A DNA stretch of 64,000 bases, taken from IMG/VR virus record IMGVR_UViG_3300026473_000477, positions 1-64,000 of that record; one strand, written 5' to 3'. The translations under genes and the position numbers were made by a program. The notes beneath the pieces are model-generated. The model made no database searches and was not told the origin of the DNA. It saw only the letters and a program-made list of their open reading frames with translations. This DNA is from a virus. This document shows, in pieces, positions 47,756-64,000 of this stretch. The stretch's first letter is position 1. The number at the start of each line of letters is the position of its first letter.

Positions 47756-48094
47756 TTACTTCCTTTTGTGTAATCTTTTGAGGATTTGATCTGTTATATA
47801 GCTGATAAAATAAGCCTCTGGTTCGTCATTATCATGATCAAGCATAATACCCCTTGACTTAAATACAGCATTTTTGAAATGGATAAGTTCATGAAAGAAA
47901 TCAGCTGTGTGCATTTCCCTTAGCCAAATTTGGAAATAATGTCTACCTTCTTTGTCTTCAGTTTGCCAAAATCTACCATAAGCATTAAGAGGAACTTCAC
48001 CAATAGCATATTTCTCAAGTTTTTTGACATCAGAGCCTAAATGGAAAATGACGTTAATATTGTAAATATCAGCGAAGAATTTAATTGTTTTCAT
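47756..48094 (-). CDS. HExxH metallopeptidase-like protein
   Basis: FFHELIH...DEPEAY; start at ATG 48094 inside the upstream WRLD motif. Confidence 0.65.
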   Translation of the reverse strand: MKTIKFFADIYNINVIFHLGSDVKKLEKYAIGEVPLNAYGRFWQTEDKEGRHYFQIWLREMHTADFFHELIHFKNAVFKSRGIMLDHDNDEPEAYFISYITDQILKRLHKRK

Positions 48095-48308
48095 CAAGTC
48101 TCCAAAGTTTGACAAGTGTTGGGTGGATTTTAATTAAATCTAAAACTCTATAATAATTGCGATGATAACCAAATGAACACTCAATACAGTCGCCAAATCC
48201 AAAATCCACAATGTTATCCGAATATACCTTGAGTATAGGATAGTTACTCATACCTTTGTCTTGGAATAAATCAAGTAAAACAAAATCACCGACTTTAATA
48301 TCGTTCAT
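48081..48308 (-). CDS. KVGD...HPxLVKLWRLD family member
   Basis: Conserved N- and C-terminal motifs. Confidence 0.8.
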   Translation of the reverse strand: MNDIKVGDFVLLDLFQDKGMSNYPILKVYSDNIVDFGFGDCIECSFGYHRNYYRVLDLIKIHPTLVKLWRLDENN

Positions 48309-48513
48309 CCAATCTCCAAAGCTTTACTAATATTGGATGTAATTTTCCAATAATACAATCCTCATAGAAGTCAAGACGTATCCAATATTTAGATCTAAAA
48401 GCATAATCATAACAAAGTAACCTACTATAATATAGGTCTACCTGTATAATCTTATCTATACGTATATCACTATTATTTTTATACATTATAAAATCACCAA
48501 CTTGTATATTCAT
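48295..48513 (-). CDS. KVGD...HPxLVKLWRLD family member
   Basis: Conserved N- and C-terminal motifs. Confidence 0.8.
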   Translation of the reverse strand: MNIQVGDFIMYKNNSDIRIDKIIQVDLYYSRLLCYDYAFRSKYWIRLDFYEDCIIGKLHPILVKLWRLDERY

Positions 48514-49061
48514 TTAATTTGATATCCTTTCTCATTCATTCTATGTACTTCAAACTTAACTTTACCACTATCAACTAACCTTTTAATATTCCTCTGTTTT
48601 TCACTCAACTGGCTATCTCCAGTCTTTACTTCAATGAAAGTTATCTGATCTTCCCCAAAATGCACGTAATCTATCGGGTTAAATAATCCTCTAAGTCCTT
48701 TAGATTCATAAGGAAAATCTCTAAGTAAAGGAGCAACATTTTCAGCAACAAGTCCAACCCTGACTTGTTCTGACCTCTCTTTACTTATTTTTTCAGCTAA
48801 TTTACTTTCAACCTCAGAAAGTCTAGTGGCAAGTTCTCCACGTTGTCTGTCAGCCGTTTGGTAAAATTCGGTTAATGTATAGATCTGAGACTGGAACTGA
48901 GATACAGTAAACTTATAAGTAGCCTCTAATTCATCGAATTTCTGCTTATAATCAACTTTTTCACTAGTACCATTAGATTTATTAGCCTCTTTATTAAACA
49001 GCTTTTTAAGCCATTTTAACACTTGGATAATGTTCTGTAATTTAAACAAAAAGGCTAACAT
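48510..49061 (-). CDS. PD-(D/E)xK endonuclease, Holliday junction resolvase-like (Endonuc_Holl type)
   Basis: GLVAENVAP...PIDYV...FIEVKTGDSQLSEKQRNIK. Confidence 0.8.
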   Translation of the reverse strand: MLAFLFKLQNIIQVLKWLKKLFNKEANKSNGTSEKVDYKQKFDELEATYKFTVSQFQSQIYTLTEFYQTADRQRGELATRLSEVESKLAEKISKERSEQVRVGLVAENVAPLLRDFPYESKGLRGLFNPIDYVHFGEDQITFIEVKTGDSQLSEKQRNIKRLVDSGKVKFEVHRMNEKGYQIK

Positions 49062-49069
49062 TTAATTTC

Positions 49070-49468
49070 CTATTCGTAAGGGATGATTAGTTCGTATCTA
49101 CTTTTACTAAAGAATCTAAGAGTAAGTCCATCTTCTCTGTCTACATTATTAGAATTGATAACGAAGAAATTATAAGAAAACTCAGAGGATATAGTTAACT
49201 CGAGAAGTTCGCCAGTAGTCTTATCCACATAAATACCATCAACAAAAGAATTCTCTCCAGAGCCTAAATCTAAACTAAAATCTCTACCAAGTAGAGTAAG
49301 GGTAACTGTAACTTGTCTATATAATGGATGTTTAAATACGCTTAAATTAAGCTTTTCATTATGCTTAATCTCTATAAGAAGGTTTGATAGTCCTTTCTCT
49401 ACTGTTTTTACCAGCTTGGTAATATTCTTCCGTAGTTCTTTTACTTTTAACTGTAGTTTCTGATACAT
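49070..49468 (-). CDS. Hypothetical protein
   Basis: SD AGGAG. Confidence 0.7.
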   Translation of the reverse strand: MYQKLQLKVKELRKNITKLVKTVEKGLSNLLIEIKHNEKLNLSVFKHPLYRQVTVTLTLLGRDFSLDLGSGENSFVDGIYVDKTTGELLELTISSEFSYNFFVINSNNVDREDGLTLRFFSKSRYELIIPYE

Positions 49469-49509
49469 AAATTGCTCCTATTAATGCTATAAATATTGGT
49501 AAAACCATA

Positions 49510-49698
49510 TTATAACTTTCTGGTTAAGTATTTGTAAACAGCCATTCCAATAAAGAATAAGGCTAAGTAATGGTTAGCATAGGCTAGAGAAGCTCCAAGT
49601 AAGTAAGTTACCAGAGCTAGTGGTAAGAATATCAACTCTGGGAAGAATAGACTTAAAATTGCCAGTATAGAATAGATAATAACAGATTTCATATACAC
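49510..49698 (-). CDS. Small membrane protein
   Basis: Almost entirely hydrophobic; SD GAGG. Confidence 0.6.
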   Translation of the reverse strand: MYMKSVIIYSILAILSLFFPELIFLPLALVTYLLGASLAYANHYLALFFIGMAVYKYLTRKL

Positions 49699-49831
49699 CT
49701 CATTATTCTATATACTACACCATCAATCTTGATTTGTCCAGTCTTTTTTATGGAATCTATTGAAACAAATTTAGTAGATATCAAAATAGTCATAGCTATA
49801 AACATTGCCAGTAGTCCAAATATGAAATCTT

Positions 49832-50131
49832 TCATTCTTCACCTTTTAGTGTAATTTGACCTAGATAGGTTGTTTTTCTATTATTTTCTTTGTCGAATTG
49901 TTTCATGGCTTTGATTACTTCTTTGTGAGTCATTCCATTTTCGTAAAAGCAAGAAACGCTCGTCCATTTATGGTCGCACATATAGGGACTATCTGAATAA
50001 ACACATTCACCATCAGGATAAATTACTCTTATACGATATGACCATCTGGTACAAAAATGATGATCCTTGTCTTCACTTCTATCAATACTCGCCCAGAATG
50101 TAGGGTTATTGTAATTAATCTTTTTTGTCAT
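49832..50131 (-). CDS. Hypothetical protein
   Basis: Overlap-coupled ORF. Confidence 0.6.
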   Translation of the reverse strand: MTKKINYNNPTFWASIDRSEDKDHHFCTRWSYRIRVIYPDGECVYSDSPYMCDHKWTSVSCFYENGMTHKEVIKAMKQFDKENNRKTTYLGQITLKGEE

Positions 50132-50438
50132 AAAGTTCCTTAGAAGATTCGTACCAAAAAGCTGTATATCTTAATCCTGAATGATGATACGGACGCACCT
50201 GATAAACTTGATTGCTCACGTATCTTTCAAGCCATACCCACTGATCTTTTATTAAAACAGGAACTAAAGCAAACTTAACTATAGATCTTTTTTCATTCAA
50301 CCTAGGTGTGTTGTTTTTCCATTTCATTTTTTCCTCACAGTCATACCAAACACAATAAAGAATACAATAATGTAAATCATTTGTCAACCTTTTTCTTAAA
50401 TCCCCTATCATCGGCATATTCTTTGTTTTCTCTGTCAT
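50115..50438 (-). CDS. Hypothetical protein (true start probably later)
   Basis: KFALVPV...WVWLERY motif; 5' part overlaps upstream gene. Confidence 0.5.
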   Translation of the reverse strand: MTEKTKNMPMIGDLRKRLTNDLHYCILYCVWYDCEEKMKWKNNTPRLNEKRSIVKFALVPVLIKDQWVWLERYVSNQVYQVRPYHHSGLRYTAFWYESSKELYDKKD

Positions 50439-50898
50439 GATACATTAAAAACATAATATTAGTTGCGCAATGAGCTAAATGTGAACATCCAGTTTCTTTG
50501 TCGATATCTTCTCCAGATTGGAAAGCGAGTAAATGTCGCATTAAGCTTTCGTAAGGTGTTGAAAACTTTGTAGGTTTTTGCCAGTTATAATGTTCATATT
50601 TAACCCTAGACTTGGTTAATACTTCTCCCAAAGCTAAAATGAAATTTGGATCAATCTCTCTTGTCTGGATTTTTCCAGCATTGTATCTTTTAGACTCGCC
50701 ATCATTTTGAGTTGTTTGTGGCTCTTTTACTACAAGATTAATTGACTCAGACTCTTCAAACTCATCAACTGGAGCAGTTAAATTAAACGCACCATTATCT
50801 CCAGATTGTAAATAAACCTTACATGATTTATCATCAATTGTTATAACTCTTCCTAGCTTTCTTGATAATTTATGGATTACAATATCGCCAACTTTCAC
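50377..50898 (-). CDS. dATP/dGTP diphosphohydrolase (DUF5664-like) with N-terminal KVGD-type domain
   Basis: RYNAGK...KY...NWQK...SLMRHL...GEDIDKETGCSHLAH; GTG 50898 after SD GGAGG. Confidence 0.82.
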   Translation of the reverse strand: MKVGDIVIHKLSRKLGRVITIDDKSCKVYLQSGDNGAFNLTAPVDEFEESESINLVVKEPQTTQNDGESKRYNAGKIQTREIDPNFILALGEVLTKSRVKYEHYNWQKPTKFSTPYESLMRHLLAFQSGEDIDKETGCSHLAHCATNIMFLMYHDRENKEYADDRGFKKKVDK

Positions 50899-50939
50899 GA
50901 AACCTCCCAATGATGGTAACAAGAGAATTATACCACAGA

Positions 50940-51356
50940 TTAGTAAAATCTTCCATTCTTATTTTCATGTTCTTCTGAAACATAGAAGTCACTTTTAAGC
51001 TGAACCATAAAAACTTGAAGAATAACACATTCCAAATGTTTATGATCTGGAGTGTGATCCCAATGCTCCAAGTGTGCTAACTCATGAGCTAAAGTCGATA
51101 ATAAATCAATAGTGGAGTATTTTTTAATCTTTTTAGGATTATTCCTATCTCTATAAGAAGTATATAGACAAATTCTTTCTGGCTTATTATCATAATAGAC
51201 AATAGAACCTTGAAAATGCTGACCAAAGTTAGGATTAGCTTTCTTAGATGTTATCTTATTAATATTCTTAACTTTTGGAACTAAATGAGCAATGGAAGAA
51301 ACATAATCCCTCATCCACTCCAAGTCCTTTGTAAACTGTATTTTCTTTTTTGGCAT
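50940..51356 (-). CDS. Zn metallopeptidase (WLM/SprT-like)
   Basis: TLAHELAHLEHWDHTPDH. Confidence 0.75.
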   Translation of the reverse strand: MPKKKIQFTKDLEWMRDYVSSIAHLVPKVKNINKITSKKANPNFGQHFQGSIVYYDNKPERICLYTSYRDRNNPKKIKKYSTIDLLSTLAHELAHLEHWDHTPDHKHLECVILQVFMVQLKSDFYVSEEHENKNGRFY

Positions 51357-51362
51357 AATTCC

Positions 51363-51617
51363 TCAGTTAAGCTTATCTTTATCCAAATAATCCTCAGTTT
51401 CCCATTCTCTAACAGAAATGAAGTCATCTTCTGATATATCATATCCAGTGAGAGAAAGTTCCAGTAATTCTTCTTTGGAAACATTACGCTGAATCTCTGG
51501 CGCACCAAAGCCTAAATCCATAATCTTTTCTAAGATCACTTTAGCTTTCTCATGGTTAGGACTAATGTCAGATTCCAACACTTCCCAAATTTCTCTAATT
51601 GCTTCAGACTTTTTCAT
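51363..51617 (-). CDS. Hypothetical acidic protein
   Basis: ORF in operon. Confidence 0.6.
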   Translation of the reverse strand: MKKSEAIREIWEVLESDISPNHEKAKVILEKIMDLGFGAPEIQRNVSKEELLELSLTGYDISEDDFISVREWETEDYLDKDKLN

Positions 51618-51630
51618 TAGTAGCCTTTTA

Positions 51631-52452
51631 TTATTTGCTAATAGCTTTATTATACGCTTTAACTGCCAATGCTACTGTATTTGACTTATCGTATTTAGCC
51701 AACTTTAAGAACAATTCTTCCAAGCTTAAAACATCATATTTGTTATACTTTTCCATTGATTTCCAAGCTTTCATATTACCTTTAAGACATTCATCCCAAA
51801 GTTTAAAACCAGAGAAGTCAGAATGTTCTTGCTTCTTATATTTAGTGCAAAGCTTTTTAGTCATGTACTCTAACTTATTGGAAGTAAATCCAAAATGTTT
51901 CTTAGCAATTCTCAAGGTGTCAATGTTTTTGTAATGTGTTGGAGCATCTAATCCATGCTCAATAAGTCTGGCATTGATTTTTTTCATGTCAAATGATATG
52001 CCGTTTTGCGTAATAACAATATCAGCTTTATCCAATAGTTTTTTAATCTTTACCAATAGTGGCTTATCATTATGTAATGACTTTCCTTTCTTATTCCTTT
52101 GGTCGGCATAGATTACTTCAGATTCACTACTTCCAAGCCATTTAGCTGAAAATGATAGAATAAACCAATCTTTAATTAGCATATTAAGTGGGATGTTTTG
52201 GTCAAACAATCCCCATACAAAACCAACCAAAGGGGATGTTTCGATATCTAAAATCAATACGTTAGGAGTATATTCTTCAGAATCAGAACAATAAGCTTGA
52301 ATACAATGTTTGATTGAATCAGGAGTTCTATGTAAGTTAAACTTTTGCCTAAACATTTTGCTAATCTCTGTTCGAGAATAACCTTGGCTATTCAACTTCC
52401 TTACATAATTTATCTGTTTTTTATCCCAAGTAATTTTCATTAAAATCTCCAA
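51631..52452 (-). CDS. DEDD 3'-5' exonuclease (RNase H-like) with N-terminal HTH
   Basis: LDIET, QNGISFD, IDTL, SNKLEY, YNKYDV. Confidence 0.88.
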   Translation of the reverse strand: MEILMKITWDKKQINYVRKLNSQGYSRTEISKMFRQKFNLHRTPDSIKHCIQAYCSDSEEYTPNVLILDIETSPLVGFVWGLFDQNIPLNMLIKDWFILSFSAKWLGSSESEVIYADQRNKKGKSLHNDKPLLVKIKKLLDKADIVITQNGISFDMKKINARLIEHGLDAPTHYKNIDTLRIAKKHFGFTSNKLEYMTKKLCTKYKKQEHSDFSGFKLWDECLKGNMKAWKSMEKYNKYDVLSLEELFLKLAKYDKSNTVALAVKAYNKAISK

Positions 52453-52477
52453 TAGTTATTATTATATAACTCATATT

Positions 52478-52759
52478 TTATTTAGTCAAGAAGAATTTAT
52501 AAAGTTTCTGCATATTTGGACTTAGTAGCTCTAAATCTTCTTCAGCCACAACTTCCCACTCATCAAAAGTCTTATTAAAGTTACAGATTAAGTATGCGAT
52601 ATTTTTAGGATTATAAACAATTATATCAATAATTCGGTAATTAACTCCACGAAATTTAACAATATCTCCAATATTATACATTGGACCAGGATGGATAAAA
52701 AATGATAACTTAAATAACGCTTTGGAAGTAAATCTGAGGATTGATTTAATAATTGACAT
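52478..52759 (-). CDS. Divergent KVGD-type small protein
   Basis: YNIGDIVKF...SPNMQKLYK. Confidence 0.6.
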   Translation of the reverse strand: MSIIKSILRFTSKALFKLSFFIHPGPMYNIGDIVKFRGVNYRIIDIIVYNPKNIAYLICNFNKTFDEWEVVAEEDLELLSPNMQKLYKFFLTK

Positions 52760-52860
52760 TAATTACTCTTTATTAAAATGACAGTAACAATAATCTGTAC
52801 TATTGAAATTACACATTGGATAATTTGCCAGAAGACTCGCTTCTTTTCATAATCAGTCAT
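52759..52860 (-). CDS. Small TM peptide (33 aa), not in ORF track
   Basis: MTDYEKKRVFWQIIQCVISIVQIIVTVILIKSN, starts in upstream WRLD motif, TAATG-coupled downstream. Confidence 0.55.
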   Translation of the reverse strand: MTDYEKKRVFWQIIQCVISIVQIIVTVILIKSN

Positions 52861-53086
52861 CAAGTCTCCAAAGTTTGACAAGCGTTGGATGTAATATAGT
52901 GTATGAGCTGTTGTTACCTGTTAGTATATCTAAAGATAAATATTCAGAACCTCTTATCCATTCGCTACCTCTAATATGTTTGCAACTAAAATAAAAATAA
53001 TTAGAAGTAAGTTTCGTAATCCTATAAAATACTAAAATATCATTAACACCATTATAAAAGAATATATCACCAACTTTAGGCTTCAT
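52853..53086 (-). CDS. KVGD...HPxLVKLWRLD family member
   Basis: Conserved motifs. Confidence 0.8.
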   Translation of the reverse strand: MKPKVGDIFFYNGVNDILVFYRITKLTSNYFYFSCKHIRGSEWIRGSEYLSLDILTGNNSSYTILHPTLVKLWRLDD

Positions 53087-53282
53087 CCAACCTCCAAAGT
53101 TTGACCAATATCGGATGGATTTTGGTATATTGACTAGGTAGAGGAATAAAAATTGCTCCCATATTCTGGTAATTATTTATTATTCTATATGTAGCTAAAT
53201 TACCAGAAATATCTACAATTTTTTCTATCTTAATAATATCTCCATTCTGGTAAATATAATACTCTCCAACTTCAGGTATCAT
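53076..53282 (-). CDS. KVGD...HPxLVKLWRLD family member
   Basis: Conserved motifs. Confidence 0.8.
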   Translation of the reverse strand: MIPEVGEYYIYQNGDIIKIEKIVDISGNLATYRIINNYQNMGAIFIPLPSQYTKIHPILVKLWRLDEA

Positions 53283-53692
53283 GGTAGAAAAAACCTTTTG
53301 CCAGATTTAGGAGCTACAATTTGGCAATGTGTCCAAGTTTCTGTAGCAGAAAAGTCCTCAAACCATAAGCCAATTTCTTCCATTAGTTTAACATTAGCTT
53401 TTATCCAATCATGCAAGTCTTTTACAGGCTTTCCAATTGGGACGATATCGCAAGCTTCACATGACAAATGCTTGCTTTTCATGGGAATTTTCGACTTGTC
53501 TGTTATACCTTTGTCGGCATAAATCTGCAAGTGATGATTCATTGTACGAACACCAGATGTAACTTTTAAAGGCTTACCATAAGCATTTCTGAGCTTATTA
53601 ATGCGTTCCAATAGAATCTCTAAATTGGCAAGCTGTTCTGGAGTTAAGTCAGATTCTAAATTTCCTGACAATAATTCTTGTTTAGTAATCAT
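53279..53692 (-). CDS. Peptidase M15 family endolysin candidate
   Basis: LRNAYGKPLKVTSGVR...SKHLSCEACDI...WTHCQ. Confidence 0.85.
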   Translation of the reverse strand: MITKQELLSGNLESDLTPEQLANLEILLERINKLRNAYGKPLKVTSGVRTMNHHLQIYADKGITDKSKIPMKSKHLSCEACDIVPIGKPVKDLHDWIKANVKLMEEIGLWFEDFSATETWTHCQIVAPKSGKRFFLP

Positions 53693-53693
53693 A

Positions 53694-53933
53694 TTATTTC
53701 CTTCTCATATAAGAAAAATCAAAAGCATTCTTTACTTTATCTATTATTGGTGAATTTTTCGACAACGATACGTAACCATATTCAGCTTGAAAAGCTGCTA
53801 TTGCTAGTTGATTAAAAAACATATTTGGATGATTTTGCTCCAAATGCTTAGTATATTTACTTGGTAAAATCACCACTCTCAAGTTGAATATTTTAAAGAA
53901 TCTATAAATAAAGGAGTAGATATGTAACATCAA
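53694..53933 (-). CDS. Hypothetical protein
   Basis: SD AAGGAG. Confidence 0.6.
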   Translation of the reverse strand: MMLHIYSFIYRFFKIFNLRVVILPSKYTKHLEQNHPNMFFNQLAIAAFQAEYGYVSLSKNSPIIDKVKNAFDFSYMRRK

Positions 53934-54045
53934 GCTCTCCTTATAGCCAATGCTGAAAGCAACAAAATGCTACCAATAGTTGGAAATCCTGACAACCCAA
54001 TAACTGCTCCTAGTCCTAATAATAACAGCTTAATTTCCAGTTTAT

Positions 54046-54252
54046 TCATTTTAATTTTCCGTTCCTAAGTTCTTCTATAGAGCAAAAAATACTCTCTAAT
54101 TCCGATGAAATAGTACCTTTGTTCTTGGATAGATCTAATAATAACAAATCTGCTATAATACGTGTAGAAGTATCAGTACGAGTTTGTAAAATTTTTATAC
54201 AACCTTCTACTATCTTTTCTTGTTTTATTTTATCTTTTTTCATTAATTTCAA
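54046..54252 (-). CDS. Hypothetical protein
   Basis: Overlap-coupled ORF. Confidence 0.55.
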   Translation of the reverse strand: MKLMKKDKIKQEKIVEGCIKILQTRTDTSTRIIADLLLLDLSKNKGTISSELESIFCSIEELRNGKLK

Positions 54253-54523
54253 TCTCCCTTATTCTATAGTATGTAATTAATTTATCCAATCTCTCTTCTT
54301 CATATACACTTAGTCCTTTAACTTTACAATTTGGATAAATACTAGCATCATATCTTGTGTAAACCATTTCTCCTAATTCTCCACATTTAGCAGCAAATGA
54401 TAATTTACTATAAGCAGAATATGTAAACATAGATAGTAATATAATAAGTATAGAAAGAATTATGTTTATAAAAAAGTGATCACAACTATCACAACTATTA
54501 AATTTATTAGTATTTTCACTCAT
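54230..54523 (-). CDS. Single-TM protein
   Basis: Hydrophobic helix, SD GAGG. Confidence 0.6.
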   Translation of the reverse strand: MSENTNKFNSCDSCDHFFINIILSILIILLSMFTYSAYSKLSFAAKCGELGEMVYTRYDASIYPNCKVKGLSVYEEERLDKLITYYRIREIEINEKR

Positions 54524-54684
54524 CCTCTTCTCCTTGTACTACAATATCACCATTAATAATATATCCACTGGCTAATAAAAAGCATTTAAAGTCTTCCAAT
54601 ATTTCAGGCAAGGTTAGGTTATGAGTAGTAAACTCAACTTCTGTCTGATCGTATTGATTGGATGGGTCCATGATTTTGGTAAAT

Positions 54685-55152
54685 TTAAGCATTCTTTTTC
54701 CTTAGTATCGCTAATTCTTTTCTCATTTCCTCTAATTTTAATTTTATCTCTTCCTTGGTAGGTTCTTTACAAAACAAATCCTTCATTACATTATAAAACT
54801 CACCCTTTGTATAACTTAAGTATTTGGTTTTCTTATCCATATCTTCTGTGATGATATAAGTTCTTACATAAGTAAAAACTCTCGTAGCACTAAGCATTGT
54901 ACGGTATTTTTTATATGGGACTATTCCAGCTTTCATTTTAGCCCATGGTTTTAACCAAACAGCAAGTTCAATTCTTTCTAGTAAATTATAGCCATGATCT
55001 TTTGCTCTTTGATTTATACTTCTCCAATCAGTTAAAATATCTTCACTGGTAAATTGACCAAAACCGCAGATCTCAATAATCTCCTTACCATCCTCATCTG
55101 GAAATGTTTCAAATATGTACCAGCAAGAATTTGACCACCTACACAAAGACAT
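54685..55152 (-). CDS. Hypothetical protein
   Basis: MSLCRWS...WYIF start, TAATG coupling. Confidence 0.65.
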   Translation of the reverse strand: MSLCRWSNSCWYIFETFPDEDGKEIIEICGFGQFTSEDILTDWRSINQRAKDHGYNLLERIELAVWLKPWAKMKAGIVPYKKYRTMLSATRVFTYVRTYIITEDMDKKTKYLSYTKGEFYNVMKDLFCKEPTKEEIKLKLEEMRKELAILRKKNA

Positions 55153-55457
55153 TACTCTACCTTTTCCTTAAAGCAAATATACTTATCAAACTTATAAATA
55201 TCAACATGCTCTTTTCCAATTTTATCACAATTTTTCTTATCTGTAAAGTGATAAGCGTATTCTATTGGAGCAGAGTCAATATATAAGTAAAGTACCCAGT
55301 ATATCACTCAAAATCCTGCATATTTCTAATCATTGCATCAATTGTGCTGATCTGAGCTTGGAAAGATAACCGCTGATCTCCAGTCAGATTATCACAGCTT
55401 ACGTAAAATAAGCAGTTTAGTTCATGTCTAAGGTTACGTAATTGTGTTAGCGTCATT

Positions 55458-57167
55458 TTATCCCTCACAACTTGCACATTGGTCTTTAGTAAAATCGCTT
55501 ACTGTACCTTTCAATACAGTCTCGCTTCTCAGATAGTATAACCCTTTTAATCCTTTTTGCCAAGCCTCTAAATGAACTTCATTAATATATTTTGCAGAAC
55601 TTCCAGATGTAAAGAATAAATTAACACTTTGGCTCTGGTCAATAAACTTCTGTCTTTGGGAAGCTTGGTTAATAATAGCGAACTGGTTGATTTCTCTAGC
55701 AGTCTTAAAGATTTCTTTCTCTTCATCAGAAAGGAAGTTTAATGACTGAACCGAACCTTGAGCTTTAATAATGCTATCCCAGACTTCAGGAGTATTCTTT
55801 CCTTTGACTGCTAACAATACTTCCAAGTTTTTATTCTTTCTAATAAACACACCCTTAGCCCCTTTTAAAGCATAAGCATTGGAAGTTAAAGGCTCAATAG
55901 AAGCCGAATCTCCTCCACAGATAGAAGCATTGCTTACAGTTGGAGCTAACGCCATTGTATGAGTATTTCTCATTCCAAATCCTTTACACCACTCAGGCTC
56001 TCCAAATTCCTTAGCCATGTTTCTACTGGCTTTGTGCGACTCTTCTTTAATGAAAGAGAAGATCTTAGCATTTAACATCATCGACTGGAAAGAGTCAAAA
56101 GGAAGCATTTTTGATTGAAGTAAACTATGCCACCCCATAACTCCAAGTCCAAGCATTCGAGATTTTTTAGCAAATCTAATTGCAGCCTCGTAACCTTCAA
56201 TTCCGTCAGCTTTATCAATGAACTCTTGCAACACACCATCAAGAAACCAAGTGGCAAGTTCTGGCAAAGTCATACCATTGGAGAAGACGTAATTTGACCA
56301 CTCGTCCCATTTAGCAAGAGCTAAGGATGACAAGCAACAAACAAATGTATGATCTTTGTCAGTGTAAGCTACAATCTCATTACAAATATTACTAGTCTTT
56401 ACCAATAGGTTGTGAAATTTATAGCATTCTGGATTCTGATTATTTACGTTATCAGTAAATAAAAGGTAAGGCTCGCCTAACTCTACTCTGGCTTGGAGAA
56501 TCTTTTTCCAACGCTCTCTTGCCACTGGATCACCTCCAATGATAGATTGCATATCATTATCAGTCAGAGTAACAGCATTGTGTACGTTATGAACTCGTCT
56601 ATTAATATCTCCAGTAGCTTTTCTGATATCAATAAATTCATCAATGTCGCCATGAGAAAACGGTAAATAGAGAGCTGAAGCTCCTCGTCTAGTTGAACCT
56701 TGACTTACTGCCAGTGTTGTAGCATCAATACATTTAGCCCATGGAACAATTCCCTCAGACTTACCATTACCAGAGATTTTAGCTCCTCTAGCTCTGATAT
56801 CTCCAATGTAAACTCCAACTCCTCCTCCACCTTTTGAAAGCATGGCAAGTTCGTGTTGCTTTTTGAAAATACCAGAAATTGAATCTTCCAAGTGATTAGA
56901 AAAGCAAGAGATTGGAAATCCTCGACTAGTTCCCATATTTGATAATACTGGAGATGCTCCACCAAGCCAGCCTTTCCAAAACATCTCAAAGAATAGAGGT
57001 GCTAACTCAGGCTTTTTAAGTCTATTGGCAGAGGAAGTGGAAACTCTAGTCCACATGTCTCTCGGAGATTCTCCATCTTGGAAATAACCATTACTTAGTA
57101 TAGAGTAACTTTCTTGATTCATCCATTCAGGTGCTAAGTCTTTTTCTTTCAGTTCATCTAATGTCAT
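55458..57167 (-). CDS. nrdA: Class I ribonucleotide reductase alpha subunit (short, no ATP cone)
   Basis: ASPVLSN, PISCF, GGGVG, QGSTRRGA, SNICNEI, LAPTVS, DQSQS, LYYLR, C-terminal CASCEG; ATG 57167 after SD GGGAG. Confidence 0.95.
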   Translation of the reverse strand: MTLDELKEKDLAPEWMNQESYSILSNGYFQDGESPRDMWTRVSTSSANRLKKPELAPLFFEMFWKGWLGGASPVLSNMGTSRGFPISCFSNHLEDSISGIFKKQHELAMLSKGGGGVGVYIGDIRARGAKISGNGKSEGIVPWAKCIDATTLAVSQGSTRRGASALYLPFSHGDIDEFIDIRKATGDINRRVHNVHNAVTLTDNDMQSIIGGDPVARERWKKILQARVELGEPYLLFTDNVNNQNPECYKFHNLLVKTSNICNEIVAYTDKDHTFVCCLSSLALAKWDEWSNYVFSNGMTLPELATWFLDGVLQEFIDKADGIEGYEAAIRFAKKSRMLGLGVMGWHSLLQSKMLPFDSFQSMMLNAKIFSFIKEESHKASRNMAKEFGEPEWCKGFGMRNTHTMALAPTVSNASICGGDSASIEPLTSNAYALKGAKGVFIRKNKNLEVLLAVKGKNTPEVWDSIIKAQGSVQSLNFLSDEEKEIFKTAREINQFAIINQASQRQKFIDQSQSVNLFFTSGSSAKYINEVHLEAWQKGLKGLYYLRSETVLKGTVSDFTKDQCASCEG

Positions 57168-57169
57168 TG

Positions 57170-58132
57170 TTACTCCCACAATTTATCCCAATTGATATTA
57201 CCTTTTGAATATGATACCTCTCTACCAGCAAAGAAGTCCTGTTGAGTCGATCCCTCAGTCATAACAGTAAACCATTGTAAACCTTCCAATGCCTCTTTGT
57301 CAAGGTTTTTCCAGTTGGACTTTAATCCAAGCTCCTGAAGCTTTAAATTGGCTCTATTGCGAATAAACGTCTTCATTTGATGTAACGTCAATCCTTCGAC
57401 ATCTCCATCTTTAAAGGCATTTTCCAAGAAAGCATCTTCCAGTTCAATTGTTAGTCTAGCAGCTTCGTAAATGTCTTTTTTAAAATCATCAGTAAATATT
57501 TCAGGATTCTCCTTAATAATTACCCTAAAAAGCTCACATCCAGCTTTTGAATGTAAATCTTCATCCAAGCAAGACCAAGCAATAATTTGTCCCATTCCTT
57601 TCATTTTGTTAAATCTGCTGAAATTTAAAAGTACAGCAAAGCTTGAAAATAAAGCAACACCTTCATTAAAAGCTGAGAAGATTGCAATAGCTTTAGCTGT
57701 TTCTGCCACAGTCTTAGCTTTGACGTTCATTAGCCTATCAATCTTGGATTTTACTGTTGGCTCATGTAGAAATGCTTGATAGTCGTCTAGTCCCAAGGAT
57801 TGATCCAAGTAGCTATAACCATTGGCGTGAATTGCTTCAAATGATGCGAAAGTCGCAAACATCATTTGTAATTCAGGCTTTTTAACTTGCTTCAAAAGTC
57901 TTCCAGACCAGAAATCATTTCCAATGAATACTTCAGTTTGAGTGAAGCCTTTTAGAATGGAGCCAATTAAATGTTTTTCTTTTTCTGACAAATTTAATTT
58001 CCAGTCATTGATATCCGATGCCATCGAGACTTCTGTATGTATCCAGTGGGCTTGATTAGCCTTCATCCAATATTCATGGAATTGAGGATATTCAAACGGC
58101 ATAAACGCTGCTCTAGGTTTAAAGATTGACAC
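57170..58132 (-). CDS. nrdB: Ribonucleotide reductase beta subunit
   Basis: PFEYP, FEAIHANGYS, EGVALFSSF, DEDLH, DFF...Y. Confidence 0.95.
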   Translation of the reverse strand: MSIFKPRAAFMPFEYPQFHEYWMKANQAHWIHTEVSMASDINDWKLNLSEKEKHLIGSILKGFTQTEVFIGNDFWSGRLLKQVKKPELQMMFATFASFEAIHANGYSYLDQSLGLDDYQAFLHEPTVKSKIDRLMNVKAKTVAETAKAIAIFSAFNEGVALFSSFAVLLNFSRFNKMKGMGQIIAWSCLDEDLHSKAGCELFRVIIKENPEIFTDDFKKDIYEAARLTIELEDAFLENAFKDGDVEGLTLHQMKTFIRNRANLKLQELGLKSNWKNLDKEALEGLQWFTVMTEGSTQQDFFAGREVSYSKGNINWDKLWE

Positions 58133-58171
58133 ATTCCTCCTTTTATGTTTTTGGGATAAACTATTATACCA

Positions 58172-58384
58172 TTATTTAAATAATTGTGCAAGAATATTAG
58201 GACATTTTATTAAAGATTTCTTTGGATAAATTACAAACCGATCTTCTCTTTCAATGTAAATTTCCAACATTTCTGTACTTGGAAATTCAAAGAATGTAAA
58301 AGATATATTAATAACTTGACCAACTTTATAACAGTCTTTATGGAAAATAAAAACATAATCTCCAATAGTTATATTACTCGACAT
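58172..58384 (-). CDS. Divergent KVGD-type small protein
   Basis: ITIGDYV...PNILAQLFK. Confidence 0.6.
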   Translation of the reverse strand: MSSNITIGDYVFIFHKDCYKVGQVINISFTFFEFPSTEMLEIYIEREDRFVIYPKKSLIKCPNILAQLFK

Positions 58385-58598
58385 CTAATTTCCATAGCTT
58401 AATTAATATTGGATGAAGTGGAACAAAGCCTTTTATGTAATTATAAAATTCTTCAATTCCCAAAGATGACGGATAAAAATCCTGACTATTGACAAACTTA
58501 AAGTAATGATTTATACTATAATTATTAATATTTCTTACAATAATAATCTCACCATCTCTGGGATCAATGAAAACATCACCTTTCTTAATATTTATCAT
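58374..58598 (-). CDS. KVGD...HPxLVKLWRLD family member
   Basis: KKGD...HPILIKLWKLD. Confidence 0.8.
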   Translation of the reverse strand: MINIKKGDVFIDPRDGEIIIVRNINNYSINHYFKFVNSQDFYPSSLGIEEFYNYIKGFVPLHPILIKLWKLDVE

Positions 58599-58800
58599 CC
58601 AATCTCCAGAGATTTACTAATATCGGATGGACTTTTCCAATAAACATGTCGTCATAGTAATCAATAGGCAAATTAATATACTGTTTATATTTTTGATCGT
58701 AGCACAAAATCGTATCGCTGTCTATCGAAACAATATTATCTATACGCACTTCATCAAATAATTCATATAATACAACATCACCAGCTTTTAAATCTATCAC
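58585..58800 (-). CDS. KVGD...HPxLVKLWRLD family member
   Basis: KAGD...HPILVNLWRLD. Confidence 0.8.
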   Translation of the reverse strand: MIDLKAGDVVLYELFDEVRIDNIVSIDSDTILCYDQKYKQYINLPIDYYDDMFIGKVHPILVNLWRLDDKY

Positions 58801-59237
58801 AAATCCACCCCAAAACCTACAGCAATGCGTTTATCTGAAGTTCCCATTACCTGTAACTTAACAGCTCCATAAATTGGAACTAAAGCATTTAAGCCGTATT
58901 CTGTCTTTCCTGATAGATTAGCCGAATCTTTGATAGCCAGCATTCCAAGAGTAATTCCAGAGCCTTTGGTAATCTTATCAGACTTTACCACTAGTGTTCG
59001 ATCTTTATCCTCTCTGGTATTTGTATTTTCATCAATAGTTACAGTAACTTCTTTTGTTCCATCTGGCTTAGTAATTTCCTTTCTTACTTCTCTTTTCTTT
59101 TTGTCCTCAACCTTTACAACTTTTTCAATTTCTACTGTTTTGATCTTTTCTATAACTTGCGGCTTTTGTTGGAGAAGAAATCTGCCAATTAAAAGACCGA
59201 TAACAAGGCTTACTGAAACGTACTTTAAATTATTCAT
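58797..59237 (-). CDS. Membrane-anchored protein with C-terminal amphipathic beta strands (possible spanin-like/envelope protein)
   Basis: N-terminal TM; ends IAVGFGVDL. Confidence 0.5.
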   Translation of the reverse strand: MNNLKYVSVSLVIGLLIGRFLLQQKPQVIEKIKTVEIEKVVKVEDKKKREVRKEITKPDGTKEVTVTIDENTNTREDKDRTLVVKSDKITKGSGITLGMLAIKDSANLSGKTEYGLNALVPIYGAVKLQVMGTSDKRIAVGFGVDL

Positions 59238-59457
59238 CTAATCTCCATAGTTTGACCAGTATTGAGTGAATTTTAACATAATTACTTGACAAAGGAAAGT
59301 GACCCAGTCCGATGTGATCAATACCATTTATATAGCTTGCTTTGTATTTAAATTTATCATTAGAATATAATTCTAATATCTTTTCTATTTGAAGAACTTG
59401 CCCATTTATAGGATTAATAAAAAAGTAATATTCTCCAACTTTTGGATCATCTCTCAT
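59230..59457 (-). CDS. KVGD...HPxLVKLWRLD family member
   Basis: KVGE...HSILVKLWRLD. Confidence 0.8.
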   Translation of the reverse strand: MRDDPKVGEYYFFINPINGQVLQIEKILELYSNDKFKYKASYINGIDHIGLGHFPLSSNYVKIHSILVKLWRLDE

Positions 59458-63743: not shown

Positions 63744-64000
63744 TTAAATTATTTCTTTTCTTTTATTTTCCCCATCTCTAATACTTCTCTTGATCTGATA
63801 AACATCCTTGCTATCAAGCTCATTTGGGGCTAATTGCTCGCATAATTGCCAGATCTTGTCCTCATCTACCCCAGACAATGAAAGTGAGAATACGCATGAA
63901 TTTAAGCTATTAATCCACATTCCTTCTAATCCAGTTGGAGCATTTCTAATGAAGAACTCAACGCTTTCAGGAATTGTCTCTTTATCCTTTCCGTACAATT
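63744..64000 (-). CDS. C-terminal fragment of a gene entering from the right edge, possibly a primase C-terminal helical domain
   Basis: Open to the window edge; helical, adjacent to PolB; product is a guess. Confidence 0.35.
   Translation of the reverse strand, partial: LYGKDKETIPESVEFFIRNAPTGLEGMWINSLNSCVFSLSLSGVDEDKIWQLCEQLAPNELDSKDVYQIKRSIRDGENKRKEII

Follow-up and report, generated by a model that had tools for sequence, protein, structure and literature searches.

A lineage-restricted family of small barrel-like proteins in an uncultured river phage, with a conserved tail that may carry signals of the following gene

The window analysed here comprises the first 64 kb (positions 1 to 64,000) of the 79,614-bp IMG/VR virus record IMGVR_UViG_3300026473_000477, which is rated 95% complete and has a G+C content of 30-38%. 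Using a profile built from seven small genes of this window, we detected 16 copies of one gene family in the whole record, all of them encoded by the minus strand within the region 48-77 kb; the window thus holds under half of the family (7 of 16 copies). These genes encode a new, lineage-restricted protein family of an uncultured river phage. They share a conserved C-terminal stretch, here called the tail, and differ strongly in the preceding body. We consider it likely that they form a multigene family of barrel proteins whose tail is read doubly, as a protein helix and as signals for the downstream gene, and whose copies are exchanged by recombination in the tails. The initial annotation of this DNA had taken the seven window genes for plug-in cassettes with a common docking tail. 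Its observation is confirmed and its interpretation is partly supported.

All seven open reading frames (ORFs) lie on the minus strand where they were initially annotated, and each displays both motifs then described: (K/Q/E)-x-G-(D/E) at the N-terminus and H(P/S)(I/T)L(V/I)(K/N)LW(R/K)LD at the C-terminus. Their middles are divergent, with 24-40% identity to the first member. The members of the window, their tails and the copy adjoining the window end are listed below.

48081-48308, minus strand: family member, 75 amino acids (aa); the ATG in its tail (at 48094) opens a 112-aa ORF.
48295-48513, minus strand: family member, 72 aa; hairpin-type tail, next gene is another member; AlphaFold2 model available.
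52853-53086, minus strand: family member, 77 aa; the tail ATG opens a 33-aa ORF.
53076-53282, minus strand: family member, 68 aa; hairpin-type tail, next gene is another member.
58374-58598, minus strand: family member, 74 aa; GGAA-type tail whose ATG opens the weak relative at 58172-58384.
58585-58800, minus strand: family member, 71 aa, GTG start; hairpin-type tail, next gene is another member.
59230-59457, minus strand: family member, 75 aa, with HS in place of HP; the tail ATG (at 59237) opens a 146-aa ORF.
48092-48125, 48306-48339, 52858-52891, 53084-53117, 58382-58415, 58596-58629 and 59235-59268, minus strand: the seven 34-nt dual-coded tails, defined by a degenerate pattern.
48306-48339, minus strand: tail coding for the helix HPILVKLWRLD and containing GGAG, 5 nt and ATG.
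64585-64809, minus strand: family member just past the window end; its tail contains the ATG (genome position 64604) of a 286-aa ORF.
63744-64000, minus strand: 3' part of this 286-aa ORF, which crosses the window end and has its ATG in the tail of 64585.

The degenerate 34-mer pattern matches exactly these seven tail intervals in the window and matched nothing in 100 shuffled sequences. In every window tail, GGAG (GGAA in 58374) is located 5 nt ahead of an ATG spanning the D codon. These ATGs open ORFs of 33-146 aa, overlapping the family gene by 8-14 nt. The claim that the W-R codons supply a Shine-Dalgarno motif and the D codon the start of the next gene is thus correct for all seven window copies. 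Such an arrangement agrees with general habits of the genome: a ribosome-site motif occurs at -18 to -4 of 53 of 80 long ORFs, compared with 7.8% of random positions, and the spacing between GGAG and ATG peaks at 5-6 nt genome-wide.

As a property of the whole family, the start module does not hold. Seven of the 16 tails lack the ATG and still keep the protein motif, and the tails fall into three classes. Class A comprises nine tails, namely those of the window together with 64585 and 71862. In each of the nine, TGG-AG(A/G) or TGG-AAA is followed by a Leu codon and GAT-G, and every ATG opens a real ORF (33-286 aa, overlap 8-20 nt). The seven other tails preserve HPxLVKL(W/Y) and are devoid of both GGAG and ATG; their codons are CAA, CGA or GGN, followed by GAC, GAA or ACA.

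Five of these seven (70277, 73760, 75252, 76705 and 71663) constitute a second, promoter-like class that was overlooked initially. Four of them, here termed type B (70277, 73760, 75252 and 76705), continue as LDKL(F/L)EN. Their CTT GAC AA codons contain TTGACA, and TATAAT, TAAAAT or TAAACT follows 17-18 nt further on, at the stop codon. Beyond this putative -10 box come a short leader, AAGGAG and the ATG of the next gene. The fifth, 71663, ends in WRLT (TTG ACA TAA) and has TTGACA, 16 nt and AATAAT with an upstream TG. All five match the layout of intergenic promoter-like sites of the phage and rank among the best sigma70-like sites of the last 15.6 kb, with 10-12 of 12 matches. No promoter-like site was found in the nine class A tails. 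Class C consists of two tails (65877 and 71468), in which the ribosome site lies in a short extension and stop and start codons overlap. No tail of any class contains a terminator-like stem-loop, the class A hairpin described below having no U-run. Judged from these motifs, codon choice within one conserved protein motif appears to track the needs of the downstream gene.

The 71663 tail also has Gly (GGG) in place of the usual Val, and its Leu-Trp codons are TTA TGG (genome 71663-71700, L017:7663-7700, minus strand). These codons form GGGGA, 5 nt and ATG ten bases upstream of the usual place, and this ATG starts the head of copy 71468. The latter copy is broken (genome 71468-71700, L017:7468-7700, minus strand). 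Its head, M-A-I-D-I-K-V-G-D..., runs for 20 codons to a stop; the body and an intact tail are in the next frame relative to the head, and part of the second strand is missing. Contig L018 (see below), which comes from another sample, is identical at this site, so a read error is not the cause. The intact tail overlaps the start of the gene for the PD-(D/E)XK nuclease.

Conservation of the tail is primarily at the protein level, since 7 of the 16 tails have no ATG and nevertheless keep the protein motif. Across all 16 tails, synonymous divergence (pS) is 0.70 and non-synonymous divergence (pN) 0.155 (pN/pS 0.22), and Leu is encoded by TTA, TTG, CTT, CTA, CTC and CTG. The high pS relative to pN, along with freely varying Leu codons, argues that the motif is kept as protein, which bears out the selection initially proposed on the grounds of synonymous variation.

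Structure was predicted for two members that are 38% identical to each other. AlphaFold2 models from the paralogue alignment reached a predicted local distance difference test (pLDDT) of 93.4 and a predicted template modelling score (pTM) of 0.78 for 48295, and pLDDT 90.4 and pTM 0.80 for 76705. Both consist of five strands and a C-terminal helix, so the two members agree in a common fold. The strands comprise residues 8-13, 16-26, 31-36, 41-46 and 54-58 and are followed by the helix; the conserved tail is this helix (residues 60-71 of 48295). A second, short helix is contributed by the KLFEN extension in the 76705 model. In neither model is the tail, initially supposed to dock onto a partner, more than the closing helix of the domain. 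The predicted fold is a five-stranded antiparallel SH3/Tudor-like barrel capped by the C-terminal helix.

Best Foldseek matches are Tudor and PWWP domains (TM 0.53-0.57, E 0.05-0.3). With VIA, the best Z was 7.1, Tudor and PWWP domains gave Z 6.0-6.4 and Spt5/NusG KOW domains Z 5.4-5.5, a range that is common for any model. Fold searches of BFVD and PDB retrieved only generic small-barrel matches, including many uncharacterised small phage proteins, and those of ESM Atlas only unnamed small-barrel clusters under the 0.9 lead level. Structural matches of this strength are usual for any small barrel and do not allow a function to be assigned. The SH3/KOW-like nature guessed from sequence therefore holds for the fold, and a function does not follow from it. 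We conjecture that these proteins bind host or phage targets in an accessory role, because they turn over between strains much faster than their neighbours do and their fold resembles that of binding domains. Between strains, pN/pS of bodies is 0.45 (64585) and 0.38 (70277), compared with 0.01-0.08 for neighbouring genes.

Exchange is indicated by comparison with related contigs. Metagenome contig L018 (3,878 bp) is 98-99% identical to genome positions 73740-70074. At a place where the genome carries a single family gene, this contig contains two: P0007, whose tail is of class A, and P0017, whose tail is of type B. Genome copy 70277 consists of the P0007 body and the P0017 tail. On the genome, the alignments of the two L018 flanks share 24 nt, and this overlap is the tail. 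The resulting indel of 211 bp extends exactly from tail to tail, with the crossover in CATCCAA (His-Pro codons), and also provides the +1 frame shift needed by the overlapping start. As the extra L018 body occurs nowhere else in the genome, the contig is not an assembly chimera. Both forms are present in Logan assemblies, the short one in one river sample (20-fold depth) and the long one as a 3,880-nt contig in another; this comparison of assembled contigs shows the presence of the forms, not their frequencies. A 79,079-bp contig encodes a protein that is letter-for-letter identical to the recombinant 70277.

A second boundary was detected in contig L019, which is 95% identical overall. The body of its 64585 orthologue differs by 27% (pS 0.51, pN 0.23) and the adjacent 286-aa gene by only 2.0% (pS 0.095, pN 0.001). 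The switch in divergence lies inside the 64585 tail, just before TGGAGACTTGATG. Because synonymous divergence is raised too, this segment looks like an allele exchange rather than a product of selection alone. Gain, loss or exchange of copies, with the breakpoints located in the tail repeat, is thus supported, L018 having one member more than the genome, and so is the shuffling through the 34-bp repeat that was suspected from the window alone. A diversity-generating retroelement was also considered and rejected; the strains show no adenine-specific pattern of mismatches, and a template repeat was not seen.

Comparisons within the genome point in the same direction. The tails of 48081 and 52853 are identical in 31 of 33 nt, and their bodies are 26% identical. 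Those of 73760 and 75252, which bracket the VWA gene, are identical at 53 of 55 positions; assembly-graph breaks at these two tails merely reflect an exact repeat of at least 31 nt. Conversely, bodies of 58585 and 70277 (the latter beyond the window) are 60% identical, and their tails belong to different classes. In a tree of the bodies, the one reasonably supported clade contains four tail classes, so that tail classes and body tree disagree. TTG-started N-termini "MSNFGDLM", which are listed twice, were discarded as merely an alternative frame of two near-identical tails.

A hairpin at the start of the downstream gene had been noticed in several copies. In the window it is predicted for three of the seven tails (48295, 53076 and 58585) as an 8-bp stem of CAUCC(A/G)AU and (A/G)UUGGAUG (-8.6 to -10.8 kcal/mol), and not for the remaining four. 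In the whole family, it is predicted at 48295, 53076, 58585 and 71862 (-8.6 to -12.6 kcal/mol) and at none of the other five class A tails. The stem of 8-10 bp pairs the His-Pro-Ile codons with (A/G)UUGGAUG, so that AUG is buried and GGAG is in the loop. Scores against background are z -2.6 for 48295, -0.8 for 53076 and -2.1 for 58585; three of the four junctions lie between -2.1 and -2.7. These four junctions are exactly those at which one full family member is followed by another. In L018, gene P0007 has both hairpin arms in its sequence. Changes in the arms are single and wobble-compatible (G-U), with no compensatory double changes, and the tandem junction (tail and next head, about 75 nt) is 89% identical between two loci.

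The family is restricted to this genome, its near-identical 79,079-bp twin and three short contigs, as judged from word-indexed as well as exhaustive profile searches that covered 5.8 billion and 1.84 billion proteins. Public runs containing its DNA are river metagenomes. No member has a Pfam match reaching the cut-off, the best ones being at chance level, and none matches the KOW, Tudor, SH3 or PWWP families of Pfam in sequence. PHROGs returned nothing under E 0.019 for any member, and no copy was found among 185,579 bacterial and archaeal species genomes. Scans of IMG/VR, with the window's own and near-identical records set aside, gave no match to the family, the exact tail pattern or the neighbouring nuclease, and megablast found no match to the genome among GenBank phages. 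Within the genome, profile scanning detected no copy in the arm encoded by the plus strand (about 6-44 kb), where the largest ORFs of the window are located. The 364-aa repeat protein P0019 (E 5e-7) was rejected as a member, since it consists of unrelated low-complexity repeats.

We propose the following explanation. The family, which counts 16 copies in this genome and 17 in that of a sister strain, would belong to the early/DNA-metabolism arm of a river phage. Its tail DNA would be read twice, coding for the capping helix in all 16 copies and providing expression signals of the following gene. In class A, the W-R-L-D codons together with the following G would yield GGAG, 5 nt and ATG, with an overlap suited to translational coupling; where another member follows, this ATG would also be paired with the His-Pro codons in the hairpin. 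In the promoter-like form, L-D-K (CTT GAC AAx) or L-T (TTG ACA) codons would provide the sigma70-like TTGACA, followed after 16-18 nt by a -10 box. In class C, the ribosome site would be supplied by the short extension, with overlapping stop and start codons. Tails, and in tandem pairs also heads, would act as short repeats for homologous recombination, presumably mediated by ERF. Copies could in this way be deleted, duplicated or exchanged inside the tail, the downstream gene retaining valid signals. Since the tail carries the signals for downstream expression, an indel of this kind leaves those of the next gene intact.

A more far-reaching version holds that tails are selected as expression adaptors that make the mini-genes insertionally neutral, the whole being a self-propagating coding cassette. 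Such a cassette could be placed ahead of any gene, since it would bring along either a coupled start or a promoter, and it would spread and turn over by tail-to-tail recombination driven by the annealing protein of the phage itself. We regard this version as a serious possibility, with the odds somewhat against it.

Several points weigh against the proposed explanation. There is only one clean indel and one mosaic boundary, both from short contigs, and the body tree, into which three sequences of ~60 aa entered as manual transcriptions, has weak support for 10 of its 15 inner branches and is thus of poor resolution. Use of the promoter, ribosome-site and hairpin motifs is deduced from the motifs themselves. 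Overlapping starts are common in compact phage genomes, and class A could be ordinary packing inherited with duplicated tails. Likewise, the perfect association of the hairpin with tandem junctions may be due to shared descent of the junction.

One alternative is an ordinary paralogous family in a packed operon. The tail would then be simply the last helix, start signals would be copied along with it incidentally and the indel would be a one-off unequal crossover. Apart from the seven tails that keep the protein motif without ATG, this is favoured by the fact that most genes on the minus strand overlap or abut. In addition, AGA is the expected major Arg codon at 32% G+C, and tail variants represent few DNA lineages, so that 9 of 9 does not mean nine independent events. 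On the other hand, codon choice follows the downstream arrangement and not the lineage of the body. GGAG and GAT-G are confined to tails in which a gene starts, CTT GAC AA is confined to those followed by a -10 box, leader and AAGGAG, and the two other Arg tails have CGA. Neither does simple paralogy account for sharply bounded, near-identical tails on bodies that are 25% identical, or for the truncated 71468, which keeps an intact tail overlapping the start of the nuclease gene. We therefore consider this alternative unlikely, albeit worth retaining.

Hypervariable middles could also result from diversifying selection on a host-interaction surface alone, with no exchange of cassettes, and the body pN/pS between strains is indeed far above that of neighbours. 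Such selection does not explain the 211-bp indel, nor a synonymous divergence of the body that is five times that of the adjacent gene (0.51 versus 0.095) and drops abruptly inside the tail, which makes it very improbable as the sole cause. Least credible of all is that the functional unit is a regulatory DNA repeat, that is, a promoter/ribosome-site cassette similar to the promoter-early stem-loop (PeSL), covered by ORFs that are not meaningful proteins: tails are the most conserved DNA of each copy, coincide with start and promoter motifs and adjoin hypervariable middles, but their pS far exceeds pN, Leu and Val codons are freely exchanged, hydrophobic patterns are kept across bodies, all 16 frames are open, two confident AlphaFold2 models concur and no terminator-like stem-loop is found in the tails.

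We also inspected the genes among which the copies reside. Neighbours include genes for dUTPase, ribonucleotide reductase, an RNase H-like protein and dATP/dGTP pyrophosphohydrolase, and further ones for a VWA protein and two ATPases, one DnaB-like and one MoxR-like. The ribonucleotide reductase shares no more than 56% identity with that of any known phage. Three recombination genes are interspersed too, coding for an ERF annealing protein, the PD-(D/E)XK nuclease and a resolvase-like endonuclease.

48510-49061, minus strand: Holliday-junction-resolvase-like endonuclease.

Together with ERF and the PD-(D/E)XK nuclease, both encoded beyond the window, this endonuclease may represent the phage's own recombination kit. 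It is plausible that the three provide the means of recombining short repeats that are roughly 80% identical.

Four further loci had been suggested as weaker relatives of the family. In comparison of the genome's own ORFs with the family profile, E-values were 2.8e-4 for 58172, 0.039 for the N-terminus of 50377, 0.1 for 52478 and 0.15 for 6318. Only the N-terminal xGDxV strand aligns in hhalign. With only the first strand motif in common, the suggestion remains marginal and membership is not established. Two of these loci are listed here.

58172-58384, minus strand: weak relative (E 2.8e-4) with the head strand only, without a tail.
52478-52759, minus strand: very weak relative (E 0.1), membership not established.

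Both end in promoter-like sequences. At the 3' end of 58172-58384, TGCACA, 16 nt and TATAAT with TG (58190-58163, minus strand) lie ahead of the ribonucleotide reductase genes. The last codons of 52478-52759 contain TTGACT, 17 nt and TATAAT (52489-52461, minus strand), ahead of the RNase H-like gene. The locus at 50377-50922 (window, minus strand) encodes the dATP/dGTP pyrophosphohydrolase, with Pfam PF18909 at residues 77-171. Its N-terminal extension of about 60 aa begins with V-K-V-G-D and may be a fused small barrel.

Some other features were seen in the remainder of the record. Two further paralogues of 182 and 145 aa (genome 69710-70258, L017:5710-6258, and 77914-78351, L017:13914-14351, respectively; minus strand) have a common N-terminal region, MKIN.K...FDGKLS.LL. 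In the 182-aa one there is a series of SAAWSAAG-like repeats, and the Logan assembly of the source sample is interrupted there. A terminator-like G+C-rich hairpin of 10 bp followed by T6 is located at genome 75498-75523 (L017:11498-11523, minus strand), just upstream of 75252 and between this copy and the MoxR-like ATPase gene. At the end of the record there is a tandem repeat of short period (genome 79400-79612, L017:15400-15612), which reads MVMLGFMVMP... in one frame and may mark a terminal repeat or the assembly end.

If the proposed explanation is correct, one stretch of 34 bases would be under three constraints at once, as a protein helix, as start signals of the next gene and as a recombination site. 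The same protein motif would be tuned by codon choice either to a ribosome site and start codon or to a promoter, according to what follows it. This suggests how phages may add, drop and swap small accessory genes in essential operons without polar effects. A fast-turnover set of small proteins resembling binding domains is a candidate for functions in host interaction or counter-defence. Should the adaptor reading be true, this could be a general, previously undescribed way for phages to hold and exchange libraries of small accessory proteins.

Several known systems share some of these features. At the level of fold, the proteins resemble small SH3-like, Tudor, KOW and PWWP domains in having a predicted five-stranded barrel followed by a helix, without a sequence match to curated families. 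Integron cassettes, which have an attC recombination site and a tyrosine integrase, can be compared by analogy only, no integrase search having been made; crossover occurred here in a direct repeat, as in homologous recombination.

With respect to translation, class A tails are similar to coupled overlapping gene pairs (PMC12548453): in 9 of the 16 copies, start and ribosome site of the downstream gene lie within the upstream ORF. To judge by sequence, each such tail belongs to an ordinary overlapping gene pair that is probably coupled. At four junctions, the start codon is in a predicted hairpin that an upstream ribosome could open, an arrangement that fits the RNA-unfolding model of translational coupling (PMC12548453). 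What sets the tails apart from usual coupled pairs is that one and the same module, itself part of a protein motif, precedes unrelated genes at nine loci.

Of all known systems, the PeSL cassette comes nearest to the tails (Arbiol, Comeau and Krisch 2010, PMC2839356; Comeau et al. 2014, PMC4122927). PeSLs of T4-type phages are dispersed repeats, composed of a promoter and a stem-loop, through which closely related phages come to differ by indels and replacements (PMC2839356, PMC4122927). In both systems, short dispersed repeats bearing signals are scattered among small non-essential genes and serve as crossover points between close relatives, and the downstream gene retains its promoter after exchange. 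Breakpoints inside the repeat are represented here by the 211-bp indel with its 24-nt overlap and by the switch in the 64585 tail. PeSLs are intergenic and contain a sigma70-like promoter and a terminator stem-loop. The tails display the promoter as a motif only, in 5 of 16 cases, and in none of them was a terminator-like site found. They are not intergenic but make up the final 11 codons of an ORF that is subject to purifying selection. Unlike in PeSLs, the repeat is thus inside the coding sequence, as the last helix of the protein, and a form with ribosome site and ATG exists beside the promoter form. The tails therefore work like PeSL shuffling yet are not PeSLs, and they would extend repeat-mediated shuffling of modules, represented by intergenic PeSLs in T4-like phages, into coding sequence.

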